Assembly: GCA_963728845.1 (NCBI GenBank)
Contig: CAVSLS010000057.1
Span: forward strand, 20,788 to 84,787
Reading direction: 5' to 3'
DNA from: an uncultured Acidimicrobiaceae bacterium
GTDB taxonomy: Bacteria; Actinomycetota; Acidimicrobiia; Acidimicrobiales; RAAP-2
DNA length: 64,000 nucleotides
The translations under genes were made by a program, and so were the position numbers. The notes under the pieces are model-generated. The model was given only the letters and a program-made list of their open reading frames with translations, was not told where the DNA came from and made no database searches. Shown here in pieces: positions 3,883-63,751 of this stretch. Positions within the stretch are counted from its first letter, which is position 1; each line of letters opens with the position of its first letter.

Positions 3883-5499
3883 GTGGAGTTCAACCTTGCC
3901 GATCTTTTCGAGAGCGTGGTCGACCGGGTCGGGGATCAGACGGCGATGGTGTCGGGCTCCCGACGGCTCAGCTACACCGAGCTGGACCGGCGGGCCAACC
4001 GGCTCGCCCACCACCTGGAGAGCGTCGGCGTCGGGTCCCGTGACACGGTAGGACTGCAGCTGGTCAACGGCACCGAGTACATCGAGAGCATGCTGGCGTG
4101 CTTCAAGATCCGTGCCGTGCCGGTCAACGTCAACTACCGCTATCTCGGAAGCGAGTTGGAGTATCTGTACGGTGACGCCGCGCTCGTGGGCCTCATCGCC
4201 CATGGCCGTTTCGCTCCAGCCGTGGAAGGGGCTCTGCACGCCATGTCCGAGTACCGGGCCGTGCTGCAGGTGTGTGAGCCGAGCGGTCATCCCCCGACCG
4301 TGGGTGAGGACTACGAGCGTGCTCTCGCATCAGCGCCCGACTCCCGCGGGTTCAGCCCGCGCCGCAGCGACGACCTTTACTGCGTCTACACGGGCGGCAC
4401 GACCGGCATGCCCAAGGGCGTGCTCTGGCGACACGACGACATCTTCTTCGCGGCCATGGGTGGCGGTGACCCATTTTCCTCGGGCAACCACATTGCCACC
4501 CCTGGCGAGCTTGTCACGCGGCTCCTGCATCCGGGCATCACTGCGCTTGCCATACCTCCGTTCATGCACGCGGCCGGACACTGGTTGGCGTTCTCGACGT
4601 TGTTCGGTGGCGGGACGGTCGTGACGACCGATGGAGGCGGCTTCGACGCAGCCGAGGTCTGGCGTCTGGTGGAGGCAGAGCGGGTCAACGCGATCGCCGT
4701 GGTGGGCGACGCCATGGTCCGGCCGCTGCTCGACGTGCTGGCCGCGCAACCCGATCGCTACGACCTCTCGTCGTTGATGGCCGTGGGGTCCGGAGGAGCA
4801 GTGCTTTCACCGTCCACAAAGGCACAGCTGGCCGAACTCCTCCCCGGTCGGATCGTCGCCGACAGATTCGGCTCGTCCGAGACTGGACAGGTCGGTGGTG
4901 AAATGCCTCCCGACGACCCGTTCGGGCCGCCACGACTGCGAGTTGACGACCGTACTGACGTGCTCGACGACGATCTGCGGCCTATCGCACCCGGATCCGG
5001 GGTGGTCGGACGTCTCGCCAGGGGCGGCCATGTCCCGATCGGCTACCTGGGCGATCCGCCCAAGTCCGCGACCACCTTCGTGGAGGCACGGGGCCAACGC
5101 TGGGCGCTGCCCGGTGACCTGGCGACGGTGGACACCGACGGGAGCATCGTTGTCCTCGGGCGAGGTTCACTCTGCATCAACACGGGCGGGGAGAAGGTCT
5201 TCCCCGACGAGGTGGAGGCCGCTCTGAAGGACGACCCCGCCGTCCGCGACGCCGTCGTCGTCGGCGCGCCCGACCCTCGCTTCGGTGAGCGTGTCGTCGC
5301 TCTGGTGCTGGCCCGGGCCGGGCACGAGATCAATCCGGAGGCTGTCCGCCAGCACGTCCATACCAGGGTGAGCGGCTTCAAGGTGCCCCGAGACATACTC
5401 GTCGTCGATCACATCGTTCGTTCGCCCAGCGGAAAGGCGGACTATCCCTGGGCCCAAGCGGTCGCCGAAGCGGCGCTACGAGACCGGGACGAGAAGTGA
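3883..5499 (+). CDS. acyl-CoA synthetase / AMP-dependent ligase (FadD-like)
   Basis: 538 aa. AMP-binding motif YTGGTTGMPKGV and a C-terminal SPSGKADY motif. GTG start preceded by GGGGAG. Confidence 0.9.
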   Translation: MEFNLADLFESVVDRVGDQTAMVSGSRRLSYTELDRRANRLAHHLESVGVGSRDTVGLQLVNGTEYIESMLACFKIRAVPVNVNYRYLGSELEYLYGDAALVGLIAHGRFAPAVEGALHAMSEYRAVLQVCEPSGHPPTVGEDYERALASAPDSRGFSPRRSDDLYCVYTGGTTGMPKGVLWRHDDIFFAAMGGGDPFSSGNHIATPGELVTRLLHPGITALAIPPFMHAAGHWLAFSTLFGGGTVVTTDGGGFDAAEVWRLVEAERVNAIAVVGDAMVRPLLDVLAAQPDRYDLSSLMAVGSGGAVLSPSTKAQLAELLPGRIVADRFGSSETGQVGGEMPPDDPFGPPRLRVDDRTDVLDDDLRPIAPGSGVVGRLARGGHVPIGYLGDPPKSATTFVEARGQRWALPGDLATVDTDGSIVVLGRGSLCINTGGEKVFPDEVEAALKDDPAVRDAVVVGAPDPRFGERVVALVLARAGHEINPEAVRQHVHTRVSGFKVPRDILVVDHIVRSPSGKADYPWAQAVAEAALRDRDEK

Positions 5500-5508
5500 A
5501 GAGACCGC

Positions 5509-6339
5509 TTAACCGAGAATCGGAAAGCGGCGTTCAGCTGCCAATCGATCGAGTGTCGTCTGCATCGTCCCGGTGAGCTCCTGGTAGCAGTCTCGAACGA
5601 TCATTTCGTCGTCAGCCGCGTCCGGCGCGTACCGCGACGACCAGTCCATCGGAGGACCCAGTTCCACGGTGATCTTCGCAGGAAGTGGGAACGTGGGAAT
5701 GCCCCCTGGCACGACACCAAAGGGGGGGCCCAGCACCAGGGGCATCACTTTGATACGGAACATGCGATCGAGCCTGAGCCACTTTGCGACGCGCTCACCT
5801 CGGGCGAGGACGACGAGTGCTTCGTGGGCGCCGACGGAGACAGCGGGGATCACGGGGACCCCTGTTCGCAATGCGAGACGAACCACGCCGAGGCGACCGC
5901 CGAACTCGATGCGGTTTCGCTCCCACCACGGCCGGAAGACCTCTGAGTCACCACCCGGGTAGTCGATCAGGATCCCTCCGCTGCGAAGAACCGCCTCCGC
6001 CGCGGCCGGCCCGGCTTCGACGGCACCGGCACGCTTCATGACAGGGCCCACCCCCGGAAGCCCCAAGAAGAACGAGTGGAAGAGTGCGTAGACAGGCTCG
6101 TCTTCGCCTCGCTCACGCCACCACGCCGTCAGCAGGACCGGTAGATCTGGCGGTGTCTGGCCACCAGAATGGTTCCCGACCACAAGGAAGGGTCCACGTC
6201 GGGGCAAATGCTCAAACCCCCGCACCTCTGGCCGGAAGTAGGACGCGTAGCGCTCCAGGACGGGTCGAACGGTACGGAGGAACGAGGGATCACGGGCAGA
6301 CCCGACGGGGGCCGGCGTGATGCTGTGGTCGTCCGCCAT
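5509..6339 (-). CDS. lysophospholipid/glycerolipid acyltransferase family protein (PlsC-like)
   Basis: VVGNHSGG and FPGG-like blocks (IDYPGGDSEVFRP) typical of the PlsC superfamily. ATG at 6339 chosen because the longer ORF runs into the tRNA gene. Confidence 0.7.
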   Translation of the reverse strand: MADDHSITPAPVGSARDPSFLRTVRPVLERYASYFRPEVRGFEHLPRRGPFLVVGNHSGGQTPPDLPVLLTAWWRERGEDEPVYALFHSFFLGLPGVGPVMKRAGAVEAGPAAAEAVLRSGGILIDYPGGDSEVFRPWWERNRIEFGGRLGVVRLALRTGVPVIPAVSVGAHEALVVLARGERVAKWLRLDRMFRIKVMPLVLGPPFGVVPGGIPTFPLPAKITVELGPPMDWSSRYAPDAADDEMIVRDCYQELTGTMQTTLDRLAAERRFPILG

Positions 6340-6465
6340 TCCCCAACTATGCACGTGATGCGGGTCGATGTCGGCTCGGAGCAGGCAGCTGCCTCTGTCG
6401 CGTGCGCCGGGATGGCCCTGCACGCCTGCGTTCAGCCGTCCACCCGATGGGGTCAAGGCACTCGG

Positions 6466-6539
6466 CGCGCTCGGAGGGATTCGAACCCCCAACCTTCTGA
6501 TCCGTAGTCAGATGCTCTAGTCCGTTGAGCTACGAGCGC
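6466..6539 (-). tRNA. tRNA-Arg (anticodon ACG)
   Basis: Hand-folded cloverleaf on the minus strand: acceptor GCGCTCG/CGAGCGC, D arm GCTC..GAGC, anticodon stem TCTGA/TCAGA with loop CTACGGA, T arm GGGGG-TTCGAAT-CCCTC. 74 nt, no encoded CCA. Confidence 0.9.
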
Positions 6540-6601
6540 TGGGTGAGACAGGACAGTGTACCGGAGCCCTGCCCCGGTTCCCGAGGCGTCGCCGCACCTG
6601 G

Positions 6602-7804
6602 TCAGACGGAGATCGGCAGCCTCGAGTAGCCGCGAACGGTGCTGGTGTAGAGGGGCACCGTGCCCTCCCGGTCGACCGACCATTCCGGGAACCGTTTGAA
6701 GGTCTCCTCGAGGGCGACCCGACCCTCCATGCGGGCGAGCGCCGCCCCCAGGCAGAAGTGGATGCCGTAGCCGAAGGACAGGTGGTGGTCGATGGTGCGG
6801 TGGATGTCGAAGCGATCCGCGTCGGGAAAGGCCCGTTCGTCGCGCCCGGCCGACCCGGTGATCATCACGACCTTGGAGTTGGCCGGGATCCTCTGCCCGT
6901 GAACCTCGACGTCCGCCGTGCACCACCGGCTCTGCACCGGCGAGGGGGCCTCGTAGCGGAGGAGCTCCTCCACGGCGTTCGGTATCAGGCTGGCGTCGGT
7001 GGCGAGCTCAGCCCGCTGCCCCGGGTTGTCGTCCAGGGTCAGGGCCGCCCAACCGAGCAGCCGGGCCACCGTCTCGGTCCCGGCGCTTCCGATCAGGAGG
7101 GCGAAGTTCGCCGCCTGCTCCATCGTGAGCCGACGCGGCTGGCCGTCCTCGTCGACGATCTCGCCGTTGAGGAGGTCCGTGAACATGTCGTCTCGTGGTG
7201 AAGTCTGCCGATCGGCAACCTGGGCCGTCACATACTCCATGAGCTTGCCCATGGCCTCGGCCGACACGTCGTTGTACATGCCCAGCTCGGGGTCGAGGTG
7301 GAAGCTCTCGTCGATCCAGCCCCGGACCATGTCCCGGTCCTCGGGCGGCACACCGAGCAACGCGGCGATGACATAGGCCGGGACGCGGGCGCCGAAGTCC
7401 TGCACGTAGTCGAACGAGCTCTTTCCGACCTGCGCGTCGAGCAGGCTCACGCAGAGGCCGCGGATATCCTGCTCGAGCAGTGCCATCCGCCGCGGTGTGA
7501 AGGCCTTGGAGACCAACCGGCGGTAGCGAGTGTGGTCGGGAGGGTCCATGAAGATCATGATCTCCATGGAGGTCGGCTCGGGACCGATCATCTCCATCAC
7601 CGTGCCGTGCGAGGAGCAGAAGGTCTGCGGATCGCGACTGAAGGCGTCCACGTCTGCGAAGCGGCTGACGGCGTAGAAGTCGAGATGGTCGTTGTAATAG
7701 AGCGGCGCCTCGTCGCGCAGGCGCCGCCAGATCGGGTGCGGGTCGACCTTGTACTTCTCATCGAGGGGATCCCAGGCGAGTGGTTCGGTGTCGAGCGCTG
7801 TCAC
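6602..7804 (-). CDS. cytochrome P450
   Basis: 400 aa. Heme-binding loop FGYGIHFCLGAALAR, EELLRY (ExxR) motif, AGTETV I-helix motif. Confidence 0.9.
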   Translation of the reverse strand: MTALDTEPLAWDPLDEKYKVDPHPIWRRLRDEAPLYYNDHLDFYAVSRFADVDAFSRDPQTFCSSHGTVMEMIGPEPTSMEIMIFMDPPDHTRYRRLVSKAFTPRRMALLEQDIRGLCVSLLDAQVGKSSFDYVQDFGARVPAYVIAALLGVPPEDRDMVRGWIDESFHLDPELGMYNDVSAEAMGKLMEYVTAQVADRQTSPRDDMFTDLLNGEIVDEDGQPRRLTMEQAANFALLIGSAGTETVARLLGWAALTLDDNPGQRAELATDASLIPNAVEELLRYEAPSPVQSRWCTADVEVHGQRIPANSKVVMITGSAGRDERAFPDADRFDIHRTIDHHLSFGYGIHFCLGAALARMEGRVALEETFKRFPEWSVDREGTVPLYTSTVRGYSRLPISV

Positions 7805-7816
7805 GGCGATCTTCTC

Positions 7817-8626
7817 TCAGACGGCGATATGGGACTCGTCCCAGAGCTTGATCCCGCCGAGGATGCCCGCCGTGTTGTCCACGACGGTGATCCGCTCGAG
7901 TACTTCGCCGAGGTCGCGCCGGTTGACGCGCTGCGCGTTGCCGCCGCCGATGTAGAGGTGGTCGAAGAAGGTCAGCGCATTGAAGTAGGCGATCATCTTG
8001 CGCACCCGCCCGTTCCACTTGTCGTCGCCGGCCTTCTTGCGCGCCGCCTCCCCGAGTTGCTCGTTGAAGTTCTCGCCCTTGCGGAATTCCAGGTGGGAGA
8101 ACTCCAGGTGAGGCAGCAGCCGGCCGCCCATGAAGAAGGCCGTGCCCACACCCGTGCCGAGCGTGACCACCGCCTCGAAGCCCTGGCCCTGCACCACCGC
8201 GAGGCCCTGGACGTCGGCGTCGTTGGCGACACGGCAGGGCTTGCCGATCGAGTGCGCCAGGGCGTGGGCCAGGTCGAAGCCCGACCAGGCCTTCACCAGC
8301 TCGGGAAGGACGGTGCTGCCGGGGCCCTTCTCGGTCACGAAGTGCGGAGCGCTGAGAACCTCACCGCTGCGGACCATGCCCGGAAAGCCGGCGGAGGTTC
8401 GGTCGGCTGTGGGGAGCTTGTCCGCCAAGCCGCTGAGCTGCTCGACCAAACGGTCGGGCGGCATGGGGTAGGTGGTGGCGATCTTGACCCGGTCGGCCAC
8501 GAACGCGCCGTCCTTGTCGAGCACGTCGGCCTTGAGCCCGGTGCCGCCGATGTCGATGCTCAGCGTGAAGGGACGGCGGTGCGCAGACGTGGTCGAGCTT
8601 TCGGTCACCGGAGGAACTGTAGCCAC
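7817..8626 (-). CDS. ppgK: ROK-family polyphosphate glucokinase-like sugar kinase
   Basis: 269 aa. N-terminal ATP-binding DIGGTGLK, followed by LGTGVGTA...EFSHLEF blocks collinear with PpgK. GTG start. Confidence 0.7.
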   Translation of the reverse strand: MATVPPVTESSTTSAHRRPFTLSIDIGGTGLKADVLDKDGAFVADRVKIATTYPMPPDRLVEQLSGLADKLPTADRTSAGFPGMVRSGEVLSAPHFVTEKGPGSTVLPELVKAWSGFDLAHALAHSIGKPCRVANDADVQGLAVVQGQGFEAVVTLGTGVGTAFFMGGRLLPHLEFSHLEFRKGENFNEQLGEAARKKAGDDKWNGRVRKMIAYFNALTFFDHLYIGGGNAQRVNRRDLGEVLERITVVDNTAGILGGIKLWDESHIAV

Positions 8627-8660
8627 GCGGTCAGATTCGGTCTCCGTGGAACCGGTCCCG

Positions 8661-9326
8661 TCATCCGAGAAGGACGTTGTGGATGATGGCGCGGAGCTGG
8701 TCCCCCAATTCTTCGTTGGTCTCCTCGGCGAAGGCCTCGCCGGAGAGGACGAGTCCCGAGAAGACCACGCCCACCGAGGCCGCCATCTTCACCCGGTCCG
8801 GGAAGGGGACCCGGGTGTCGGCCAGCACCCGTCGGAACTGGTTCTGGAAGTCCTCGTGCTCGGCGTCGTGGTCCTCCCGGTGCAGCTTCTCGAGGGCGGC
8901 CTGGTTCCGCTCGTGCATGAGGAAGATCTTGCGCTGGGCCAGCATCTGGTCGACGATGCCGTCGAGCAGCTCGCCCCACAGCTCGAGGGTGACCGGCCCC
9001 TCGGTCATGCGCAGCAGCGCCTCGCGGCCGAATTCGTGGATGCGCATGTGCAGCGCCAACAGGATGTCGTCCTTCGACTCGAAGTGGTAGTAGAGGGCTG
9101 CCTTGGTGACGCCCAGCTGCTCGGCGATCTGGCGCAGGCTGGTGCCGTCGAAGCCCTGCTCTATGAAGAGGTCGAGGGCCACATCGAGGATGCGCTCGCG
9201 GGTGTTGGGGTGGGCGGGGTCGGCAGCGGAGGCCACGCCCGGGCCCGGCTCGACGACGCTGCCGAGAAGCGGCTCTTCGTCTGGTTCTGCGTGATCTGGG
9301 TCTGCGTGCGCCGCGGTCTGGGACAT
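8661..9326 (-). CDS. TetR-family transcriptional regulator
   Basis: HTH region RERILDVALDLFIEQGFDGTSLRQIAEQLGVTKAALYYHF. Divergent from the ABC exporter gene at 9419. Confidence 0.85.
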   Translation of the reverse strand: MSQTAAHADPDHAEPDEEPLLGSVVEPGPGVASAADPAHPNTRERILDVALDLFIEQGFDGTSLRQIAEQLGVTKAALYYHFESKDDILLALHMRIHEFGREALLRMTEGPVTLELWGELLDGIVDQMLAQRKIFLMHERNQAALEKLHREDHDAEHEDFQNQFRRVLADTRVPFPDRVKMAASVGVVFSGLVLSGEAFAEETNEELGDQLRAIIHNVLLG

Positions 9327-9338
9327 TCGCCTCAACTC

Positions 9339-9410
9339 TACTTGACGGCAGGTAAGTAAGGTCCTACCATGCCTCATGCCTTAGCCGGAGAGTCTACTGA
9401 CCGACAGGTA
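9339..9410. promoter_or_regulatory. two copies of a 16-nt partly palindromic motif in the TetR/ABC divergent spacer (candidate operators)
   Basis: TACTTGACGGCAGGTA (9339..9354) and TACTGACCGACAGGTA (9395..9410) share 12/16 positions and have TAC..GTA ends. The second abuts the ABC gene's ribosome-binding site. Confidence 0.3.
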
Positions 9411-9418
9411 GGGAAGCT

Positions 9419-10477
9419 ATGGGACCTGAGCTGATGATCGAGGCCGAGGGGCTGACGAAGAGCTACGGCCAGACCCAGGCCCTGGCCGGGGTCGGCTTCT
9501 CGGTCCCCGCCGGCACGATCCTCGGGCTGCTCGGCCCGAACGGGGCAGGGAAGACGACGGCCGTGCGGATCCTGACCACGCTGGCGCTGCCCGATTCGGG
9601 ACGCGGCGCCGTGGCCGGCATCGACGTGGCCAAGCACCCCGGTGAGGTTCGGCGCCACATCGGCGTCGCCGCCCAGGACGCCACGTTGGATCCGCTCTTG
9701 ACGGGGCGCCAGAACCTGGTGCTGGTGGGCGAGCTCTCGGACATGGGCCGAGCCGCGTCGAAGTCCCGAGCGACCGAGCTCCTCGCCCAGTTCGAGCTGA
9801 CCGACGCCGCCGACCGTATCCTCAAGGGCTACTCGGGCGGCATGCGCCGGCGGCTGGACCTGGCCGCGTCGCTGATGACGCGACCCCCCGTGCTCTTCCT
9901 GGACGAGCCGACGACGGGATTGGACCCGACGAGCCGGCAGCGCGTGTGGGACGCCATCCGTGAGCTGCTCGGCGAAGGGGTCACGGTACTGCTGACGACG
10001 CAGTACCTGGAGGAGGCGGACGCACTGGCCCACCGCATCGTCGTCGTGGACCACGGCCTCGTCATCGCCAACGGCACACCCCAGGAGCTCAAGGAGGCGA
10101 GCCGGAGTGCCCGCGTCGAGGTCACGCTCCCGGCTCCGCACCCGGAGGCGGTTGGCGCGATGGCGCCGCTGGTCGCCGGTCCGGTCCACGTCAGTGAAGA
10201 TGGCCGGCGCCTGAGTGCCGGGGTGGACGCCGCACCGGGCCTGGCCACCTCGGTCGTACGTGCGCTGGACCAGGCGGGCGTACTGGTGGACAACATCGAG
10301 GTGCGCCAGCCGTCGCTCGACGACGTGTTCTTCTCGCTCACCGGCGGGCACATCGAAGGGGACGCCGAGGACGGGGACGGTGCCGCGAACGATGGGGTCG
10401 GGGATCGCACGATTGCGGCGGCGGATCCCGGCAGTGACGGCGGCGGCCGTCACGAGCTGGAAGGAGTGCGCGCATGA
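9419..10477 (+). CDS. ABC transporter ATP-binding protein (DrrA-like, ABC-2 exporter)
   Basis: Walker A GPNGAGKTT, signature YSGGMRRRL, Walker B LFLDEPTTGLD. Overlaps the permease start by 4 nt (ATGA). Confidence 0.9.
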   Translation: MGPELMIEAEGLTKSYGQTQALAGVGFSVPAGTILGLLGPNGAGKTTAVRILTTLALPDSGRGAVAGIDVAKHPGEVRRHIGVAAQDATLDPLLTGRQNLVLVGELSDMGRAASKSRATELLAQFELTDAADRILKGYSGGMRRRLDLAASLMTRPPVLFLDEPTTGLDPTSRQRVWDAIRELLGEGVTVLLTTQYLEEADALAHRIVVVDHGLVIANGTPQELKEASRSARVEVTLPAPHPEAVGAMAPLVAGPVHVSEDGRRLSAGVDAAPGLATSVVRALDQAGVLVDNIEVRQPSLDDVFFSLTGGHIEGDAEDGDGAANDGVGDRTIAAADPGSDGGGRHELEGVRA

Positions 10478-12810: not shown

Positions 12811-13037
12811 GCCAGACGTTCCGGGCCTCTTCCGCCCTTCGGCCTCCGCGTCACGCGGCCCGGGTCGCAACCAGGTCGCAATTCGACTGCAACCGCTGCC
12901 CAACGAAACGGCGCGGTGGTGACGACGCGCCGACAACGGCATCCCTCTGGCCTTGAGTTTTGGGGTTCCGTTGGGACGTTCTGTGACTTTTGATACCTGC
13001 GCTTCAACGACGGTTTGTCATACCCTGTCGGAGGCAC

Positions 13038-16505: not shown

Positions 16506-17150
16506 TCATTCAAGGTTCGTGTCGAAGTTGAACTGCACCTCCTCGGGGTTGAAGCCTTCGGTGTGGAACATGCGCCACATGTCGAGCCCCTCGAGGGTGC
16601 CCGCGGTCATGTCGTCGACGAGGCCGTTGACGAACTTCAGCTCGGCGGCGAGCTGCTGCTCCTCGTACTCGGTCTCCAGCTCGAAGATCCGGGGCAACCC
16701 GGCCTCGTGCGCTGCCTTCATGGCGCTGCGGATGGCGACCACCTTCATCTTCAGCGCGTCGGCCCGCGCCCGAAGTGCCGCGAGGGCGTCGTCGGGATCG
16801 AGGGAAGGGATGAAGGAGAGACCCGCCATGAACGCCGGGTACTCCTTCGTGGGGACGCCGATGAGCTCGGTCATCCAGTCGTCCATCTCGCGCGACCCGT
16901 CGTCGGTGATCTCGTACACGGTGCGCTGGGGCCGCTTGCCCTCCCGCACGGTGCCGGTCGCCTTGATGAAACCCTTCTTCTCGAGCACCTCGACCACGGC
17001 GTAAAGGGAGCCGTAATTGAGGCGGACGCTCTCCTGTTTGGCCCGCTGGCGCAGGGTCTGGGCCACCTCGTAGGGGTGCATGGGCTTCTCGTAGAGGCAG
17101 ACCAGCACCGCCAGGGCGAGGGGGTTGGAGCGGGACCATCGTGGTGGCAT
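16506..17150 (-). CDS. PadR-family transcriptional regulator
   Basis: Winged-helix region LALAVLVCLYEKPMHPYEVAQTL...NYGSLYAVVEVLEKKGFI. First gene of a PadR plus ABC-2 exporter unit. Confidence 0.9.
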   Translation of the reverse strand: MPPRWSRSNPLALAVLVCLYEKPMHPYEVAQTLRQRAKQESVRLNYGSLYAVVEVLEKKGFIKATGTVREGKRPQRTVYEITDDGSREMDDWMTELIGVPTKEYPAFMAGLSFIPSLDPDDALAALRARADALKMKVVAIRSAMKAAHEAGLPRIFELETEYEEQQLAAELKFVNGLVDDMTAGTLEGLDMWRMFHTEGFNPEEVQFNFDTNLE

Positions 17151-17168
17151 CGACTCATAGTATTCGAT

Positions 17169-17196
17169 TCAGAGTAATCTGTAAAGAGTGCTCTGA
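17169..17196. promoter_or_regulatory. inverted repeat in the AT-rich region upstream of the PadR gene (candidate operator/promoter)
   Basis: TCAGAG-N16-CTCTGA within an unusually AT-rich stretch directly upstream of the PadR start. Confidence 0.25.
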
Positions 17197-17351
17197 GACG
17201 AATCTTCTGACTCGTGTGGCCTCCAATTAGACGTCTCCCCGGAGCTACGTCACGCACGCTCGCCAAGCAAGCACGCGGGCGATCGGGCCCGGAAAAGTGT
17301 GTCCGTGACCCAGCCAACCGTCACACCCTGCCGACCAAAGTGAGAGAAGGT

Positions 17352-17383
17352 CAGGACCCGCAGGCTGATGCCGGCGGGTCCTG
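17352..17383 (-). terminator. stem-loop downstream of the membrane-protein gene
   Basis: caggacccgc (17352..17361) pairs with gcgggtcctg (17374..17383): 10-bp stem, 12-nt loop. Confidence 0.45.
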
Positions 17384-17406
17384 GGGGTCTTCGAGCCCGG
17401 GAGGAC

Positions 17407-17937
17407 TCAGGCGATGGCCGGGGACCGGAGCAGCCCGCCCCGCTCGATGACGGCGCCAGAGCGGCGGGCCTTGATGTACAGGCCAGCCGTCCGGGTGGAC
17501 ACCTCGGCCATGGCCATGAGGATGAACGCCGTGGCCCAGACCGAACCCGAGGTGATGGCGTGGGCGGCGCTGAACCGGGCGACGGCCGGTGCGCCGCCGT
17601 GGCTGACCCACAGCGAGAAGCCGACCCGTGCGCCGATGCCGGCCACCCACAAGACGGCGGCCAGGGCGCCCGCCTTGGCGAAGGCGCCGGCGCCGTCGCG
17701 GCCAACCGTCGTGGCCAGTGCGGCCAGGGCCCCCAAGATGGCGCCGAACGCCGTGCCGCCGACCACGAGCACGAGGTCGTTGCCGGCGGTCGGGATGCCG
17801 TGAAGGATGCTGGTGCAGACCCAGATCGTCACGACGAGGGGGAACACCAGGCGGGCCTTGGTCACCTTGTGGCCCCGGACCTGCAGGACCACCAGACCGA
17901 CCAGGAAGAGGTTGAGGAGGTATTCGGCGAGTGTCAT
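17407..17937 (-). CDS. integral membrane protein, function unknown
   Basis: 176 aa with 4-5 hydrophobic helices. Start context and coding-like composition; no recognisable catalytic motif. Confidence 0.65.
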   Translation of the reverse strand: MTLAEYLLNLFLVGLVVLQVRGHKVTKARLVFPLVVTIWVCTSILHGIPTAGNDLVLVVGGTAFGAILGALAALATTVGRDGAGAFAKAGALAAVLWVAGIGARVGFSLWVSHGGAPAVARFSAAHAITSGSVWATAFILMAMAEVSTRTAGLYIKARRSGAVIERGGLLRSPAIA

Positions 17938-55788: not shown

Positions 55789-57109
55789 GTGCCGGCCACC
55801 GATTCGACCGCCGCCATCGAGGCGGTCTACCGGATTGAGTTCCCGCGTGTCGTCGCCACCCTCGCCCGCCGCGTCGGCGACATCGGGCTGGCCGAGGACC
55901 TGGCCCAGGAGGCGCTGGTCGATGCCCTGCGCCAGTGGCCCCGGGACGGCACCCCGGCAAATCCGGGTGCGTGGCTGACCGCCGTCGGCAAGCGGAAGGC
56001 GATCGACCTCTTCCGCCGCGACCGCACGCTGGCGGCAAAGTACGCGCGGGTGGGTCGTGCGCTCGAGTCCGACGGCCCGGCCGGGGTGGAGGCGCTGGCC
56101 GACGTCGAATCGGAGGAGGAGATCCAAGACGACCAGCTCCGTCTCATCTTCGTCGCGTGCCATCCGCTCTTGTCCGTGCCGGCCCGCGTCGCGCTCACCC
56201 TGCGCCTCGTCGGGGGCCTCACCGTGCCCGAGATCGCACGGGCCTACGTCGTCCCCGAGCCCACCATCGCCCAGCGGATCGTCCGCGCCAAGAAGACGGT
56301 CGCCAAGGCCGGCGTCCCCTTCGAGGTGCCGAGCGGTGACGACCGCTCCGCCCGGCTCGGGGCGGTGCTCGAGGTCGTCTACCTGATTTTCAACGAGGGT
56401 TACTCGGCCACGTCCGGCGAGGACTGGCTGCGCCCCGAGCTGTGCGCGGAAGCCCTCCGGCTGGGTCGGATCCTCTCCTCCCTGGCGCCCGAAGAGGCCG
56501 AGGTGCACGGACTGGTCGCCTTGATGGAGTTCCACTCCTCGCGCCTGCGCGCCCGCACCGGCCCCGCCGGCGCTCCCGTCCTTCTCTTGGACCAGGATCG
56601 ACGCACGTGGGACCGCCTCCTCATCAACCGGGGCAGCGCGGCGTTGACCCGGGCGGAGGCCCTCGGCCCGACCAAGGGGCCCTACACGTTGCAAGCCGCG
56701 ATCGCAGCGTGCCACGCGCGGTCGTTCCGGCCCGAGGAGACGGACTGGGCGCAGGTCGTGACGCTCTACGGCGAGTTGGCTCGCCGCCGCGCCGTCGCCC
56801 ATCGTCGAACTGAACCGGGCCGTCGCCATCTCCATGGTTTCGGGCCCCGGTCCCGCGCTCAATCTGGTGGACCAACTCGTCGAGACCGGGACGCTCGAGC
56901 GCTACCACCTCCTCTACAGCGTGCGGGGCGACCTCCTGGACAAGCTGGGGCGCCCCGCCGAGGCGGCCGCTGAGTTCGAGCGCGCCGCGGGCCTGGCGAC
57001 GAACACGCCGGAGCGGGACCTCTCCGAGCAGCGCGCCCGTGCCAGCCGCGCCCGCGCCGCCGGGGGGTCGACCGGTGCCCAGGCCGTCACGGGTGGTGTC
57101 GCCGGCTGA
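55789..57109 (+). pseudogene. ECF-like sigma-70 family factor with a long C-terminal TPR-like domain (YciI-associated type), with a frame change
   Basis: Region 2 (DLAQEALVDALRQWP..NPGAWLTAVGKRKAIDLFRR) and region 4 (LTLRLVGGLTVPEIARAYVVPEPTIAQRIVRAKK). The frame reads ..LYGELARR, then a junk tail. The continuation PSPIVELNRAVAISMVSGP..YHLLYSVRGDLL is in the next frame. The junction is near 56781..56793. Confidence 0.8.
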
Positions 57110-58542
57110 GCCGACTCCGCCGACTCGTCGAGAACCACGGTCGCAGCAGAATCCGGGCCGGCGGCAGCGTGCCGTAGACCAGGACGCCGCGGCCCTGAGG
57201 CAGGCAGCGCAGCTCTTCGGGGGGCAGCAGCCGGCGCAGCCCGGTCGTCGACGTCGTGGAGCGTCGGCCCGAGGGGTCGCGGGTCACCGAGGGAAGGGTG
57301 ACCTCCTCGTCGCCAATGAGACGGCTCGCATACTCCAGGGTGTCGGGGTCGGCGATGCCGGGCAGGAACAGCTTGGCCCGGTGGTTGTTGAGGACGGTCG
57401 GGCGCGCGCGCACCGTAGCGTCCCCTGACCTGGGCCAGGTCCTGCCAAATGGTCACCAGCTGGACCCCGTGCGACGCGCAGGTGGCGGCCAGCCCGTCGA
57501 GCTCGGGCAGCGGCGCGATGTGGGCCGCCTCGTCGAGCACGACGAGCAGCGGGGGGTCGAGCGCCTTTCCCGCACGCGTGGCCCGTGTGAATGCGTGCGC
57601 GAGGACCTGCTGGGTGAGGGCCGAGAAGTAACCGCGCAGCCGGCGCTGGTCGTGGGCGGGGGCGCACAGGTACACCGTGTGGGGACCATGGAGCAGGCAA
57701 TCCGGCTCGAAGAGGTCGGGCACCCTCGCACCGGGCCACGGAGGGGTGAAGGGGGCCAACACCGTCTCGGCGGTCGTGGCGACGGAGCTGCGCGTGCGCT
57801 CGTCGCGGCACCAGGTGGCGCGCGCCGCGTCGAGGGCCTCCGGTGTCGCCCGCCGCTCCAGGATGCCGGCCACCTCAGCGACTTCCTGCGTGTCGACCCA
57901 GCGCACGACATCGGCCATGGTGCGACGGTCGAGCATCGCTGCGTGGAGGAGGGGTGCCAGCATCTTGGCCGCCGTGGCGTACCAGAAGTCGCCGTCGGGG
58001 GTCGACCCGTCCGCTTTTGCTGCGTCGCAGAGGTCGGCCGCGACCCGACAGGACCGATGCCACTCGGCGCAGCCGGTGAGCGGTGACCACGTGCTGGCTC
58101 GTGCGCCCGTGCAGCCGGTCGGATCGATGCACCACACCCGGCCGCGGCGCGCCCGGGCACCGAGCGTGTGGCGCAAGAGGTCGCTCTTGACGCTGGCGGC
58201 CACCACCGGACCACGCCAGCCGAGGATGGCCGGCACGGCCAGGCTCGTCGTCTTCCCGCTCTGGGTCGGGCCGACGACGACGAGGGACTGGGCCCGCTCG
58301 GCGGCGACACCGGCGGGACGGACGACGCCCGGGACCACACCGAGGAGGAGCCGGCCGGCCGGGGGAGCCTCCGCCTTGACGAGGAGCGGACGAAGGTTTC
58401 GCCGCGTCGCCCAGCGGGCGCCCCGCCGCGCGGGGCGGCGTCGCGTCCTCGTCCCCGGCCGCGCGGCCTCTCGGTACGACATGGCGGCCAGCAGCGCGCC
58501 GGCGAGGGCGACCGGCACGGCAGCTGCCGCGACGTCCACCAC
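57087..58542 (-). pseudogene. type IV secretion coupling protein (VirD4/TraG/TraD-like ATPase) with a frame change
   Basis: Walker A VVGPTQSGKTTS, Walker B LLVVLDEAAHI. The frame reads ..IWQDLAQVRGRYGARA, then junk. The continuation PTVLNNHRAKLFLPGIADPDTLEYASRLIG..RPWF is in another frame. The junction lies in the gcgcgcgcg repeat at 57399..57411. GTG start 4 nt after the upstream stop. Confidence 0.8.
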
Positions 58543-58545
58543 CGT

Positions 58546-59857
58546 CTAGCGGCCCGTCATGGCGGCGTCGGTGTCGACGATGCGTCGCTCGAGCGCACTG
58601 AGGCGGTGCTGCACCAAGAACGAGCGTTGGCCCACCTTCCACAAGGCGATGCCCCGCCGCAGCTGAGGCAGCAGGTCGGCCTCGGTGTGCGACAGCGACA
58701 GCAACTCTGCCGCGGTGTCGAGCTCGCCGGGCGACTGCGCGTAGACGACCCGCGTCTCGGAATCCGAGAGCAGTCCCTGGGCCAGCGCCACCTGCTCGGA
58801 GTCCGACGCGCCGACGGAGCGCAGGTCCGACACCCGATGCAGGACGGCCACGTTGGAGACGCCGAAGGCGCGGGAGAGCTTCCAAGAGGACTGCAACCAG
58901 CGGGCGACGCCCAGGTTCGACAGGATCGCCCACGCCTCGTCGACCACCAGGAAGAACTGACCCCGACCGCTCGGCGCGGCGCCGGTCGGTCACCGCCGTC
59001 CGGGTCAGCGCCGCCTGCAGCCAGGCGGTGGCACAGGCCATCAGCACGCCGAGCGCGGCCGACGAGTACAGCGCGGACAGATCGAGCACGACCAGCGGTG
59101 CCGAGAGGTCCAGGCCCGGTGTCGTCGGACCGTCGAACATGCCGCAGAGGTCGCCGTGCACCAGCCGGCGCAGCTCGAGGGCGACGTCGCGCCCGTCCTC
59201 GAGCAGCGTGCGGCGCTCCGTGCGCAGCGACCGCGCCGCCTCCTCGCTCGGGGAGAGCAGCGCCTCCACCACCATCGGCACGGTGGGGGCGCCGTCGACC
59301 GCTCCGGCGTCGAGGAGCGCCGCACCCAATGCGGCGCGCTCGCGCGGCAGCAGGCTCCGCCCCAGGCAGGCGCTGGCCAGCGACGCCAGGAGCTCGGTCC
59401 GGCGCCGCCCCGTCGCGTCGGGCCCCCTGTGCTCGTCGTCGGGTCCCGGGTCGAGCGGGTTCAACCGGATGGCACCGCCGGGACGGAGGGCCACCGGGCG
59501 GACGCCCCAGGCATCGGCCAGGTCGGCGTACTCGCCCTTGGGGTCGACCACCCAGGCCCGGCGGCCGAAGACGGCCTGTCGCCACAGGAACGTCTTGACG
59601 AAGGAGCTCTTGCCCCGCCCGATCTGGCCGAACACGACCATGTTCGGGTTCGACACCACGCCGGCGTCGTAGAGCTCGAAGGGATCGAACACGAACGAGC
59701 CCCCGAGCAGGTCGTCCCCGATGACGACGCCGCGCCGGCCCAGGCCGGCCTCGGCGATGAAGGGGTACGCCGCGCCGAGGTTGCGCGTCGTGACCTGGTG
59801 GGCCGGCAGGCGCGGGCTGCGAGCGGACACGCCGGGGAACGGTCGGGCCCGCCACAC
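58546..59857 (-). pseudogene. VirB4-like conjugative ATPase (short actinobacterial type) with a frame change
   Basis: Walker A VFGQIGRGKSSF. The frame reads ..TDRRRAERSGS, then junk. The continuation QFFLVVDEAWAIL (Walker B)..VSNVAVLHRVSDL is in another frame. The junction is near 58950..58965. GTG start at 59857. Confidence 0.8.
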
Positions 59858-59894: not shown

Positions 59895-60365
59895 ATGAGC
59901 GTGGCGGCACCGGTCATCGACTACCGACACGGCTTTCACTTCGACCTCTCCCCCGAGCAGCTCTGGGAGCGGATAGAGGAGGTCGACCAGTTCGAGCGCT
60001 GGTGGCCCTGGCTCTCCGAATGCGAGCTCGAGGGCAACGGGCTGGCCAAGGGGTCGGTCCTGCACGGGGTGGTCGCGCCGCCCCTTCCCTACCGCATGCG
60101 GCTCCGCGTCGAGTTGGGCGAATGCGTCCGGCCGCACTCCATCGACGCCACCATCGGAGGGGACCTGACCGGCGTGGCGGGGCTCAGCCTGCGCCCCGGG
60201 GAGGGCGGCACCTGGGCCGAGGTGTCGTGGCACGTCGAGATGCGCCAGCCGGCCATGCGGCTGGCCAGCCGGTTCGGTCATCCCCTCTTGCAGTGGGGAC
60301 ACGACCGGGTGGTCGAGATCACGGTGGCCGGCTTCCGCAGGAGACTCAAGGCAGCCGACACCTGA
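59895..60365 (+). CDS. SRPBCC (START/polyketide-cyclase-like) family protein
   Basis: 156 aa. FHFDLSPEQLWERIEEVDQFERWWPWL is typical of the SRPBCC fold. Only 37 bp (59858..59894) separate it from the divergent VirB4-like gene. Confidence 0.75.
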   Translation: MSVAAPVIDYRHGFHFDLSPEQLWERIEEVDQFERWWPWLSECELEGNGLAKGSVLHGVVAPPLPYRMRLRVELGECVRPHSIDATIGGDLTGVAGLSLRPGEGGTWAEVSWHVEMRQPAMRLASRFGHPLLQWGHDRVVEITVAGFRRRLKAADT

Positions 60366-60366
60366 C
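60315..60366 (+). repeat. direct repeat copy 1 (the native 3' end of the SRPBCC gene)
   Basis: gagatcacGgtggccggcttccgcaggagactcaaggcagccgacacCtgac. Matches 61296..61347 at 50/52 positions. Confidence 0.9.
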
Positions 60367-60680
60367 TCTGACTAATGGCGCCCGGTGTCCATCCAGCGGT
60401 GGGCGAAAGCGCGGGAACGGACTCCGGTCGGCCCCCTGCCTCTGAACAGCACCACAGCACCATCGGGGCACTCTTCCCAACCGCCGCAACCCGATCGCCA
60501 TCCGTCAGCAATACCGTGCTGTCCGTTTTGGCACACCGGAGTAAGTCCAGGCGTTTCCGGGCGCCGTCGTCGGAGACCGACAAGACTGCTCCCAGTAGAG
60601 GAGCGACCCGTCACTGAGTTGGCCGACGCCCGAGGGACGAGTACGAGGGGCGGGACGCTAGGTCCAGAGAGGTGAGCACG

Positions 60681-61028
60681 ATGAGCAATAAAGAGGCGGT
60701 GCCTGAAACGAAAGGCGTCACGGCGGAGTTACTTACAACCGTTGACCTTGGCCCTGAGATCGAGGGAATGACGGGGCGTCAACTTCGAATGCGTATGTTC
60801 ACCTTCGAGCCGGGAGCCGTCTTCGGCCCGATTCACGACCATAAGGACAGACCAGGCATCGTCTACATACTGCAGGGAACGATCACTGACCACCGAAATG
60901 GAGCCGCTACGGACTATGGGCCGGGAGTGGGCTGGCCCGAGGACAGGAACACCACCCACTGGCTTGAGAACAGAGGAACGGTTCCGGCGGTGGAGATTTC
61001 GGTCGATATCGACCGGCTTGCCCAATAG
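60681..61028 (+). CDS. cupin-domain protein
   Basis: ATG at 60681 (AGAGAGG 9 nt upstream; the track starts at GTG 60672). FEPGAVFGPIHDHKDRPGIVYILQG..NTTHWLEN fits the cupin_2 G(X)5HxH..H pattern. Visibly more AT-rich than its neighbours. Confidence 0.8.
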   Translation: MSNKEAVPETKGVTAELLTTVDLGPEIEGMTGRQLRMRMFTFEPGAVFGPIHDHKDRPGIVYILQGTITDHRNGAATDYGPGVGWPEDRNTTHWLENRGTVPAVEISVDIDRLAQ

Positions 61029-61295
61029 GTCACCCCCCTGCCCCTTTACGCCTGGGTTAGTGACGCAGTGTTGTCTCGGACTCGGCAGGTTGGTCGACTT
61101 GCCGGTAAGGCGAGTATCCGGAACCGCAACCCGCGAGGGTCGAAGGCTGAAAGCAGGTAGTAGACCCGATGTCGCACCAACACCCTCACCTCAGGGTGTA
61201 CCAGTACGCCGCACCGGCACGGTGGAGCAGGGAGACAGGTCGAATCCCCTGATAATCCCTGTTCAGGGTGTGGGATACCCCGCCGTAGAGTCGTT

Positions 61296-61347
61296 GAGAT
61301 CACCGTGGCCGGCTTCCGCAGGAGACTCAAGGCAGCCGACACGTGAC
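61296..61347 (+). repeat. direct repeat copy 2 (orphan duplicate of the SRPBCC 3' end including the stop codon)
   Basis: gagatcacCgtggccggcttccgcaggagactcaaggcagccgacacGtgac. Read in the SRPBCC frame, it still encodes EITVAGFRRRLKAADT-stop. Both differences are synonymous Thr codons. Confidence 0.9.
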
Positions 61348-61403
61348 ATAACTTGGAACGATGCAGTGTGCGTGCGAGTGGAGCGTCAGGTCTCTGAGGA
61401 CCG

Positions 61404-61874
61404 ATGGACAGTGACGACGGTGCCGCCGTCGGGCGGCTGATCGCCAAAGACGAGATCATCGATCTCGTCCATCGCTATTCGTACTGCGTCGACCACAGGC
61501 TGTACGACGAGGTCGTGGAACTATTCACCGAGGACTGCGTGGTCGACTACGGACCGGAATATCGCACCGTGCGATCCAGGGCTGGTCTCCGGCGGATGTT
61601 CGGAAATCCTGAGGGGGGATTTATTGCAACGAGCCACCACAATGCGAACGTCCTCGTCACGTTCGAGGACCTCGATCATGCGTCCGTGCGCACATCCGTG
61701 TACGCCTGGCATCAGCGGTCCGACGGGGTCACACCCCGCTTGTGGGGCTACTACCACGACTCCGTCGTCCGTCATCCCGACGGATGGCGCATTGCCGAGC
61801 GGCGGCTTCGGACTCTGGGGGCCGAGAATTGGAATGCGGTGATGCGATCGGCTTTCGAAGACGAAGCTCCGTAG
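61404..61874 (+). CDS. NTF2-like (SnoaL_4-type) protein
   Basis: DEIIDLVHRYSYCVDHRLYDEVVELFTEDCVVDYG .. SHHNANVLVTF is typical of the family. Confidence 0.75.
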   Translation: MDSDDGAAVGRLIAKDEIIDLVHRYSYCVDHRLYDEVVELFTEDCVVDYGPEYRTVRSRAGLRRMFGNPEGGFIATSHHNANVLVTFEDLDHASVRTSVYAWHQRSDGVTPRLWGYYHDSVVRHPDGWRIAERRLRTLGAENWNAVMRSAFEDEAP

Positions 61875-61946
61875 TCAGCAGCCCGTCAGCATCCGGGTGA
61901 GTTCTGATGGCCGGGTCGCAATCGGTGAAAGCGGCCAGGATCAGAC

Positions 61947-62246
61947 TTGCGCAGATCATCTCTGGACCTATCCTCGCTGGCGGTGGATGAAGTCGAACCC
62001 CCACCGGGTAACCCGTTATCTGTGAGAGGTCGTCTCCGCGTGGGCGACCGAGGCAAGGAACTGGCGGCCGGACTTGTGCAGCGAGCGTTTGCCAAAGGCC
62101 AGCTCTCCAAAGATGAGTTGGACAACCGCCTATCCGTTGTGCTCGAGGCCCGCGTAGGCGACGACCTGAGACCGGCGCTCGACGACCTGAAGGAATACCA
62201 ATTGGTACGAGTAAACCCACGGATGTGGGCGTACTGGCTGGATTGA
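61947..62246 (+). CDS. DUF1707-domain protein, apparently truncated (start uncertain; GTG at 62022 possible)
   Basis: LRVGDRGKELAAGLVQRAFAKGQLSKDELDNRLSVVLEARVGDDLRPALDDL matches the DUF1707 pattern. No downstream domain follows before the stop. Confidence 0.5.
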   Translation: MRRSSLDLSSLAVDEVEPPPGNPLSVRGRLRVGDRGKELAAGLVQRAFAKGQLSKDELDNRLSVVLEARVGDDLRPALDDLKEYQLVRVNPRMWAYWLD

Positions 62247-62268
62247 CTTTTCAAGTCCGGGTGGACTC

Positions 62269-63024
62269 TTAGCCGAGCCGCGCCACCGCGAGCGCGGCGG
62301 CCAGCAGGACGACGGCCCAGGCCATGGCCCGCAACGCGTGCTCGAGCGGGGCCAGCAGCGCCGGGCGGTCGATCGCCTGCCGCGCGCCGTCGGACAAGGA
62401 CAGCACCCCGCTGACGTCGACAGCCCGGCGGCGGAGCATCCGGGCCGGGGTGCTCAAGGCGCGCTGCGCCAGTGACAGGAGGAGCGCCCCGACCGCTGCG
62501 AGCGCTGGCGCGAGCGCCAGCGTCCCGGTCTGGGCCACGTACGCGGTCACCACGGGGAAGGCACCCCAGCTGGCGGCAAACCCCACGTCGTTGTGGATGA
62601 TCCCTCCGAGGACCTCGAAGTTGTACCCGACCACGAGTACGGGTCCGAGCACGAGGAACGGGACCAACACCCATCCGACCTGGACCACCCCGGCCACGCC
62701 GAGGACCAGGGCGCCCACGAGTCCCACCACGGCCGCGCCCACGAGAGCGGGCGCGGGGATGTGCGTGCGGAGCGGCCGGCCGTGCAGCTCGTCGAGCGCG
62801 TGCGCCGCCACGCCGACCGCCAGGAAGAAGGCGAGGAGCGTCGCGATCAGTCGCGTCGTGTTGACCACCGGCGCCAGGCAGGCCCCGATGACCACGTAGG
62901 CCAGGTGCCAGGCCGTGTACGGAGGGTGGAGCAACGTCCACCAGTCCCGCCAGCCACCTGGGCGGGCGGCGTAGTAGGCCGGACGTTCCTGGGACGGCCG
63001 GTCTCGGGGCGCTGCCTCAGCCAC
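62269..63024 (-). CDS. integral membrane protein, function unknown
   Basis: 251 aa with about 7 hydrophobic segments. GTG start overlaps the methyltransferase stop by 8 nt, suggesting an operon. Confidence 0.7.
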   Translation of the reverse strand: MAEAAPRDRPSQERPAYYAARPGGWRDWWTLLHPPYTAWHLAYVVIGACLAPVVNTTRLIATLLAFFLAVGVAAHALDELHGRPLRTHIPAPALVGAAVVGLVGALVLGVAGVVQVGWVLVPFLVLGPVLVVGYNFEVLGGIIHNDVGFAASWGAFPVVTAYVAQTGTLALAPALAAVGALLLSLAQRALSTPARMLRRRAVDVSGVLSLSDGARQAIDRPALLAPLEHALRAMAWAVVLLAAALAVARLG

Positions 63025-63751
63025 TGCGGCGACGCCCCCACATGACGAGGCCGCCGCCGAGGCTCATCCGCCGCACGCCGACGTCGACCAGTCCGGCCCT
63101 GCCCCAGGCCTCGACCGTCCAGTCGAGCGGATAGCGCTGGTAGTGCGCCGAGATGTTGGGTCCGAGGAACCGGCCGACCTCCAGCCATTCCCGGCCCCCC
63201 GTGACGAGCCCACCGACCGGGAGGACGAGCCTCGTGTAGCCCCACCACCAGAACCGCCAGAAGCGGCTCTGCGGGAGCAGGAACTCCAGGTTGGCCACCA
63301 CGCCTTCGGGCTTCACCACCCGGGCGAGCTCGCGCAGCGTCGCCCCGGGATCGTCGACGTAGCGCAGCAGATAGGTGAAGGTGAGTGCGTCGAAGGTCGC
63401 ATCAGCGAACGGCAGCTGCTCGCCCCGGCCCGCGATCAATCGGACCCGGTCGGCCATCGCCCGTCCGGCGACGTTCCGCTGGCCCTGGCGCAGCATCTCG
63501 AGCGTCAGGTCGACCCCGACCACGTCGGCGCGCGTGCGCTGCGCGATCTGCAAGGAGACGCCGGCCGGCCCACACGCCACGTCGAGCACCAGCGCCGGAT
63601 CCTCCGGCACGATGTGATCGATCATGGCGCGGCGCCAGCGGCCGTTCTGGCCCATGGACAACACTTCGGCCAGCCGGTCGTAGCGTGCCGGGAGCGGGGA
63701 GAAGAGCTGCTGGGCGAACCGGTTGAGTTCGTTCGGCGCCCGTGTCTCCAT
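63017..63751 (-). CDS. class I SAM-dependent methyltransferase (UbiE/MenG-like)
   Basis: VLDVACGPAGVS motif I, DALTFTYLLRYV, LRELARVVKPEG. GAGGAGG SD. Confidence 0.85.
   Translation of the reverse strand: METRAPNELNRFAQQLFSPLPARYDRLAEVLSMGQNGRWRRAMIDHIVPEDPALVLDVACGPAGVSLQIAQRTRADVVGVDLTLEMLRQGQRNVAGRAMADRVRLIAGRGEQLPFADATFDALTFTYLLRYVDDPGATLRELARVVKPEGVVANLEFLLPQSRFWRFWWWGYTRLVLPVGGLVTGGREWLEVGRFLGPNISAHYQRYPLDWTVEAWGRAGLVDVGVRRMSLGGGLVMWGRRRSG

Follow-up and report, generated by a model that had tools for sequence, protein, structure and literature searches.

The locus examined here raises the question of how two near-identical copies of a gene end came to lie 981 bp apart beside an SRPBCC gene, in a 64-kb stretch (the window, meaning all of the DNA analysed) of contig CAVSLS010000057.1 from an uncultured Acidimicrobiaceae bacterium. 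Comparison with orthologous loci from ~90 Acidimicrobiaceae assemblies indicates that window positions 60309-62268 probably represent a two-unit tandem array of small, non-autonomous integrative cassettes, site-specifically inserted at a 29-bp core (GTGGTCGAGATCACSGTGGCCGGCTTCCG) in the end of that gene.

The repeat pair and the two cassettes of the window

Positions 60315-60366 and 61296-61347 form a direct repeat with 50/52 identical positions, and no match as good is expected from 100 dinucleotide-preserving shuffles of the window. The pair grows to 58 nt (60309-60366 and 61290-61347, 54/58 identical, spacing 981 bp) and was by far the top repeat in 58-64 kb. Copy 1 forms the final 16 codons and TGA of the SRPBCC open reading frame (ORF), which occupies 59895-60365 on the forward strand (156 codons; Polyketide_cyc2 by Pfam, E 7e-12), while copy 2 read in the same frame gives EITVAGFRRRLKAADT*, the asterisk marking a stop. 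The mismatches at 60323 (G/C) and 60362 (C/G) are third positions of Thr codons and the two further mismatches of the 58-nt pair, at 60311 and 60314, are third positions of Val codons, all four differences being synonymous. The 52-nt repeat and its synonymous Thr mismatches had been noticed in a sequence-only reading of the window, and both were confirmed on re-reading. Exact-protein look-ups returned no record for the SRPBCC or cupin proteins of the window.

Such a pair could be produced by a local tandem duplication of the gene end or by misassembly, and the source does look like an error-prone long-read metagenome-assembled genome (MAG), with frameshifts in the adjacent TraG-like and VirB4-like genes. 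The DNA lying between copy 1 and copy 2, however, duplicates nothing nearby and is foreign in composition, and the same architecture was found in independent assemblies from other samples (L002, L108, L003, L004 and others). The comparative data therefore refute this explanation, which the sequence-only reading had itself raised, and it is regarded as extremely improbable.

The repeat was found to consist of two parts, a 29-bp core common to empty sites and a 28-nt tail that is element-borne. Core copy 1 (GTGGTCGAGATCACGGTGGCCGGCTTCCG, 60309-60337, forward strand), the core of the left attachment site (attL), is the sole portion of the repeat to occur in empty sites as well, and is followed by the substitute gene tail CAGGAGACTCAAGGCAGCCGACACCTGA (60338-60365, forward strand), encoding RRLKAADT*. 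Core copy 2 (61290-61318, forward strand) is followed by a second copy of this tail, the former gene end (61319-61346, forward strand). The repeat appears to be 52-58 bp long in the window because both copies also bear the element-type tail, and the 52-bp att-like repeat proposed earlier is replaced by a 29-bp core plus a 28-nt element tail. Copy 1 does supply the last 16 codons and TGA of the SRPBCC gene, as had been stated, but it is not the original end; the last nine codons and stop are element-derived, since empty-site orthologues end in RRRIERA* and not in RRRLKAADT*.

The first unit, cassette A (60338-61318, 981 bp), is the cupin unit. Its left arm (60338-60465, forward strand) comprises the substitute tail and ~100 bp of conserved non-coding sequence (CTCTGACxAATGGCGyCyGGTGGACATCCAGCGGTGGGC...CCTGCCTC), and is 76-97% conserved in L002, L003, L004, L023, L048, L064, L082 and L108 beside unrelated cargo. 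The cargo module (60466-61031, forward strand) consists of the cupin gene (Cupin_2, E 1e-9) with ~200 bp of its own upstream DNA, the ORF starting at GTG 60672 or ATG 60681 and ending at 61028. In the right arm, a conserved block (GGCACGGTGGAGCAGGGAGACAGGTCGAATCCCCTGATAATCCCTGTTCAGGGTGTGGGATACCCCGCCGTAGAG, 61216-61289, forward strand) aligns with the right ends of 10 other differently loaded inserts. The bracketed DNA holds this single Cupin_2 ORF between flanks of 305 and 267 nt without a convincing ORF, in agreement with the earlier description of a ~1-kb single-gene cupin unit; the unit is not a one-off, belonging instead to a same-site family found in many relatives.

The second unit, cassette B (61319-62268, forward strand; GC ~0.61), is older and decayed. 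It carries an SnoaL_4 gene (61404-61874) and a DUF1707 gene (61947-62246), both on the forward strand and assigned by Pfam. Missing from it are 36 bp of the left arm, the right end and the right attachment site (attR). Neither the native tail (RRRIERA*) nor attR is present in the window. Copy 2 of the repeat has a right arm before it and an element-type tail after it, and is therefore a junction of two head-to-tail units. Copy 2 is thus the A/B junction and the gene end as it stood before the arrival of A. It had been suggested that copy 2 and the sequence downstream might be the ancestral context; what follows it is instead a second, decayed cassette, with the native tail and attR gone. The ancestral right flank is formed by the genes for a 251-aa membrane protein (62269-63024, reverse strand) and a UbiE/MenG-type methyltransferase (63017-63751, reverse strand).

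Composition agrees only in part with the sequence-only reading. The bracketed DNA is AT-richer, as claimed, at ~61% GC, but the low-GC tract (~61% against ~72%) spans 60367 to ~62260, continuing past copy 2 and including the SnoaL_4 and DUF1707 genes. GC at third codon positions was 0.67 for the cupin gene and 0.65-0.75 for the window cargo overall, compared with ~0.9 in host genes. Other tracts below 65.5% GC occur in the window at 201-2700 (minimum 0.60) and as ~ten shorter stretches, including 5301-5900, 7201-8100 and 16801-17500.

Empty and occupied sites in relatives

Species-representative genomes were scanned with the SRPBCC protein, giving at least 80 orthologous loci with a best identity of 91-92%. 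The hosts were nearly all uncultured Acidimicrobiaceae or Acidimicrobiales MAGs. Of the orthologous loci, 51 keep the downstream membrane-protein gene, and in 33 of the 51 homology to it starts no further than 60 bp from the SRPBCC stop; there the convergent 251-aa membrane-protein gene is followed by the UbiE/MenG-type methyltransferase gene. The usual SRPBCC end is ...RRRIERA*, abutting the convergent membrane-protein gene. In L001, L005 and L006, which were read directly, the gene ends in ...GGCTTCCGG or ...GTGGTCGAGATCACCGTGGCCGGCTTCCGG CGC CGG ATC GAA CGC..., giving the protein end VVEITVAGFRRRIERA*, and in L001 and L006 the stop codons of the SRPBCC and membrane-protein genes overlap.

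Foreign DNA of ~61% GC was found at one and the same 29-bp core in the window and at least 13 relatives. Immediately after ...TTCCG, the sequence switches to CAGGAGACTCAAGGCAGCCGACACCTGA and the left arm in the window, L002, L003, L004, L048, L064, L065, L082/L085, L108 and others. At the far end of the inserts, the right arm (...GGTCGAATCCCCTGATAATCCCTGTTCAGGGTGTGGGATACCCCGCCGTAGAG) is followed by a second 29-bp core, a native-type tail and the membrane-protein gene, and this classical attL/attR layout was read in L003, L004, L048 and L065. The core is present once in the empty sites L001, L005 and L006 and at both insert ends in L003, L004, L048, L065 and L108; in these five occupied loci the displaced native RRRIER*-type tail lies at attR and RRLKAADT* at attL. 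Judged from this sequence comparison, the anatomy is the standard one for elements that integrate site-specifically into the end of a gene and supply a replacement tail, and the true att core is 29 bp. The proposal that an element had integrated into the 3' end of the gene, bringing a replacement end, is thereby backed both by the att-type junctions and by the occupied and empty loci.

Tandem arrays were not confined to the window. The junction of right arm, core, element tail and left arm is also present at L002 11382-11441 and L108 2570-2627, in an arrangement like that of core copy 2. L108 holds an intact array of attL, a 1200-bp cassette, a junction, a 1353-bp cassette, attR with the native tail and the membrane-protein gene. 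L002 (assembly MFD05521.bin.2.123) contains both cassettes of the window. It also retains the 36-bp left-arm segment missing from B in the window, 0.6 kb of additional DNA and, at 12908-12933, a degenerate attR of native type. The comparison of SRPBCC loci that the sequence-only reading had called for thus gave inserts in some relatives and empty sites in others, with A itself present in L002.

When a tree was built from the neighbouring UbiE and membrane proteins, the occupied loci were spread over at least four clades, interleaved with empty ones, and the nearest neighbour of the window was L001, an empty site. The tail RRRL[KENG]xA[DG]T was found in 13 of the 120 best SRPBCC protein clusters, with hosts 70-92% identical to the query, and native tails varied freely among these clusters.

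The inserts might instead reflect a hot spot of homologous recombination, with no site-specific recombinase involved and arrays spreading via the SRPBCC and membrane-gene flanks or via the arms. The flanks are 85-93% conserved among relatives, the block of high identity between the window and L002 has fuzzy borders, and contigs often break at the integration site, all of which would suit this explanation. Homologous recombination may disseminate arrays already in place, but cannot give rise to the junction anatomy. Unrelated cargos meet the same nucleotide-level junction, ...TTCCG; the 29-bp core is duplicated, attL carrying a swapped tail and attR the displaced native one; and the head-to-tail junctions run in the order right arm, core, tail, left arm. 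Recombination of this kind as the sole cause is therefore considered quite improbable.

Several further rearrangements were observed around the integration site. L003 (1006-4256) and L007 (10444-15470) have a common element with ~82% nucleotide identity, in which an ORF of 66-72 aa for a coiled-coil protein lies beside the right arm. A 2-kb NTP_transf_5 block lies downstream of attR in L003 and between gene and element in L007, where the gene end is native-type; this layout is as expected after excision of one of two element copies. In L102/L103 (JGI Ga0683294_0000631, 10001-10462), the SRPBCC orthologue P0008 has a tail swapped within the core (…EITV|RSLPPDFGYRG) and precedes an island (8 kb or more) with glycosyltransferase and ABC-transporter genes and none of the family arms, a different kind of insertion at the same spot. 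Contigs with an element-tailed SRPBCC gene stop at most 1.4 kb downstream of the gene in L114 and L115-L117 (~150 bp in L114), and breaks of this kind can arise at repeated or population-variable sequence. On the other side of the gene, L002 has a 4.4-kb insertion absent from the window (5572-10001, between the VirB4-like gene and the SRPBCC start), in which ECF-sigma-like and CYTH-like ORFs and a 158-aa ORF were recognized by eye, marking a second variable spot.

The trio of SRPBCC, membrane-protein and UbiE genes sits between type-IV-secretion-like genes, with VirD4 and VirB4 on one side and TrbL_3/EccE-like genes on the other. These surroundings recur in several relatives (window 56914-59857, L108 9573-11426, L109 8732-10100) and appear to form a conserved chromosomal neighbourhood, not an integrative and conjugative element (ICE). 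In the window, the TraG/VirD4-like and VirB4-like genes at 56914-59857 (reverse strand) are each split over two frames; the two VirB4-like halves are in one frame in L006, and both genes are single ORFs (485 and 427 aa) in L102. The split genes are either pseudogenes or the result of long-read indel errors, and if they are errors, single-base differences in the window call for caution.

The cassette family and its possible mobility

The units of the family are made up of the substitute tail (RRLKAADT*), a left arm of ~100 bp, variable cargo and a right arm of ~75-110 bp, with the arm motifs GGYCGAATCCCCTGRTNATC and AATGGCGTCTGGTGGACATCCAGCGGTGG. Across 19 cassettes from 16 loci the arms were held in common, while ~17 cargo sets were unrelated, and cargo was shared by two pairs only (window/L002 and L003/L007). 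The cargo genes, found on either strand, encode cupin, SnoaL_4, DUF1707, CDF cation-efflux, acyltransferase_3, methyltransferase, CMD, LEH and AHSA1 proteins and helix-turn-helix (HTH), ArsR and TetR regulators. Most units were 0.6-1.6 kb, and all cargo had 59-65% GC irrespective of host GC. Larger same-site inserts carry alpha/beta-hydrolase genes, an ECF sigma factor and a cyclase-STAND protein.

The cupin module was also found without arms or core, in L110 (88.7% nucleotide identity) and L111 (79%), and cargo and arms are therefore separable modules. In L110 (4168-7453), a cupin gene with 92% protein identity and the same upstream DNA lies on an unrelated contig and is flanked on either side by a transposase gene of the IS110 family (DEDD). 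With more than 6000 close homologues, the cupin is a very widely travelled small gene.

The arms are conserved in sequence with almost no compensatory changes (RNAalifold), and no Rfam family was matched in them, a combination that fits protein-binding DNA rather than RNA. Copies of the motif GGAGAC / GCAGGrG lie in the right arm and at both ends of the left arm, with inverted orientation at the far end of the latter, which weakly suggests arm-type binding sites. The left arm of L064 (10470-10510) contains a 13-bp tandem duplication (GGTGGACATCCAGC GGTGGACATGCAGC GGTGG), as expected of a protein-binding site.

Other identities considered for the junction and the arms were rejected. Rfam gave nothing relevant in 58-64 kb (E<=1), and the only tRNA found by ARAGORN in the window was tRNA-Arg at 6464-6539, the T-loop look-alike GGTCGAATCC in the right arm not being a tRNA. 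A structured RNA or attC-like hairpin in the arms was dismissed on the near-absence of compensatory changes and a single-stranded DNA fold z-score of only -1.8. An origin of the right arm by duplication and divergence of the gene sequence preceding the core was rejected, as the two aligned with a score equal to the shuffle mean, and a promoter and terminator scan gave nothing above shuffles. A miniature inverted-repeat transposable element (MITE) or mobile insertion cassette was likewise rejected, there being no inverted repeat between the ends and few shared inverted k-mers, with all copies at one site beside a gene-derived 29-bp repeat and not at varied sites.

No recombinase was found in the cassettes or their flanks. 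Tyrosine and serine recombinase motifs were absent from the window and from ±10 kb of 80 loci, apart from one spurious match. Recombinase Pfam families were absent from the cargo proteins, and no recurrent recombinase family was seen among the 25 most recurrent Pfam families listed for 118 flank ORFs of 16 occupied loci. Nor did any appear in the gene tables of contigs with an element-tailed SRPBCC gene. By Pfam, no integrase was present in the large inserts L007 and L008 or among the window ORFs near tRNA-Arg, where a P450 and an acyltransferase were found instead. The motif and Pfam scans accordingly uphold the earlier statement that the bracketed unit has no recombinase.

These results bear on the main rival explanation, in which the cassettes are relics of integrase-bearing islands or prophages, having become cis-mobilizable elements (CIMEs) by decay, and no dedicated cassette system exists. 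Decay is evident, in that arm sequence and attR are missing from B in the window and attR is degenerate in L082/L085 and L002. Larger same-site inserts of 2.2-5.1 kb are present in L007, L008, L071 and L077 (OY970387.1), and accretion after the formation of CIMEs has been documented as a route (PMC5704250). Against this, at least 12 independent units of 0.6-1.6 kb, with one or two genes, have both arms intact, whereas random deletion should cost an arm or leave integrase fragments; neither an integrase nor a fragment of one was found in ~100 loci, and the cargo is uniformly ~61% GC across unrelated genes. Decayed islands are for these reasons an unlikely source of the family, if a more credible one than recombination through the flanks.

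Under the preferred reading of dedicated non-autonomous cassettes, a free cassette would hold an attP-like region of ~250 bp (right arm, core, substitute tail and left arm) together with 0.4-1.5 kb of cargo. Integration would couple the cassette's own tail (RRLKAADT*) to the gene and shift the earlier tail downstream. A recombinase encoded elsewhere and acting in trans would integrate, and presumably excise, the cassettes, and we infer such a source for the enzyme. A tyrosine integrase is the probable candidate, given that the core is flanked on both sides by ~100 bp conserved without covariation, in the manner of protein-binding arm sites.

For the window itself, cassette B with its SnoaL_4 and DUF1707 genes would have come first and cassette A, of 981 bp with the cupin gene, later, at the gene-proximal site. 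Copy 2 would then be the tail of B joined to the right arm of A, with B decaying afterwards and the native attR being deleted. When the window is compared with L002, cassette A shows 95-98% identity, in its non-coding sequence as well, whereas B and the flanking genes reach 89-93%. This suggests that A may be younger than the split of the two hosts. The younger-looking unit adjoins the gene in this array, the sole one in which ages can be compared.

Several points weigh against this account. The mobility of the cassettes is deduced only from comparative anatomy; viral contigs, plasmids, phages, one metagenome motif scan and ~100 loci yielded neither a recombinase nor a free attP, a circular form or an autonomous relative, and the scan for recombinase motifs was crude. 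Signals for the crossover position within the core conflict, the window and L002 favouring its 3' edge and L108 disagreeing. The block of high identity between the window and L002 does not have sharp borders at the att sites, its left arm being ~90% identical, and the cupin is under strong purifying selection everywhere, which weakens the argument that A is younger.

The sequence-only reading had envisaged copies away from the SRPBCC gene, and none with the family arms was encountered in the window or in the collections scanned. The 64-kb window lacks a second copy of the arms, and the right-arm motif had no matches in viral contigs. One metagenome scan gave 21 contig matches to this motif, of which only L082 and L085 were real, both lying at the same site with a decayed attR. 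The attP-like junction had no BLAST match in plasmid or phage collections.

A broader possibility, offered tentatively, is that Acidimicrobiaceae possess an integron-like gene-capture platform, in which a pool of ~1-kb cassettes of ~61% GC with an attP-type site of ~250 bp is stacked at one SRPBCC gene by a dedicated recombinase encoded elsewhere. If the units are truly mobile as 1-kb cassettes, they would be a compact, recombinase-less way to move single accessory genes in a poorly studied soil lineage, and their recombinase would become a candidate tool for site-specific integration in high-GC actinobacteria. The format has useful traits in its fixed target, a gene repaired by the replacement tail, and conserved arms, the last of these giving a handle for cataloguing cassettes in metagenomes and for finding the recombinase. 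If they are merely decayed islands, the locus still offers a clean natural case of elements accreting in tandem where a protein-coding gene ends.

Comparison with known systems

The sequence-only reading did not recognize the unit as a described cassette type, and literature, phage and plasmid searches agree with it: no published description of this cassette format or att site was found, only general analogues. Set beside integrase-bearing islands, the cassettes have a shared att core and an element-borne gene end and do not have an internal recombinase. Tycheposons pile up at the ends of tRNA genes, newcomers pushing older units inward and leaving partial gene-end copies between them (bioRxiv 10.1101/2020.12.28.424599). 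They resemble the cassettes in repeated site-specific integration at one gene end, but carry integrase and replication modules and range from several to 20 kb, whereas the cassettes have neither module and target a protein-coding gene.

A replacement gene end is also known from phage 21 and e14 in icd, where the element carries a diverged substitute 3' end that leaves the gene intact and encodes its own integrase beside the att site. The cassettes share the replacement end with these elements, which unlike them are prophages with their own integrase. Integrative mobile elements exploiting Xer (IMEX) insert at the chromosomal dif, with a dif-like 28-bp core that has a conserved XerD arm. Integration of this kind is presumably not involved, the core GTGGTCGAGATCACCGTGGCCGGCTTCCG lacking by eye a TTATGTnAAnT-type XerD arm and lying within coding sequence.

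Integron cassettes are alike in being ~1 kb, mostly single-gene and recombinase-less, with diverse cargo in tandem at one chromosomal site, and, in the window/L002 array only, in having the younger-looking unit nearest the fixed site. Classical integrons are not known to have been reported in Actinomycetota. The present array differs in that no IntI, attI or Pc lies beside it, its neighbours being SRPBCC, VirB4-like, membrane-protein and UbiE genes, and no tyrosine recombinase is present in the 64-kb window. The unit ends are not attC hairpins with GTTRRRY cores, consisting instead of a 29-bp coding core, a replacement tail and ~100-bp arms, and the cargo lies on either strand with its own upstream DNA.

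The closest known systems appear, by analogy, to be CIMEs and the recombinase-less elements of the staphylococcal cassette chromosome (SCC). SCC and pseudo-SCC elements integrate into the 3' end of rlmH (orfX) in staphylococci, with gene-end direct repeats between stacked units, and their composite arrays include recombinase-less units that rely on supply in trans. They use Ccr large serine recombinases, repeats of ~15-18 bp and units of 3-60 kb. The cassettes differ from them in host phylum, and no Ccr-like gene was seen here. CIMEs are flanked by attL and attR and lack integration and transfer genes (PMC5704250), a definition that also describes the units of the window. Like these cassettes, CIMEs form head-to-tail stacks in which hybrid att sites separate neighbouring units, the target being the 3' end of a gene. 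They are defined as decayed ICEs or integrative and mobilizable elements (IMEs) beside a related autonomous element, none of which was found here in the loci and collections searched. The cassettes are, unlike CIMEs, uniformly tiny, usually of one or two genes with both arms kept, and look like a designed format rather than debris.

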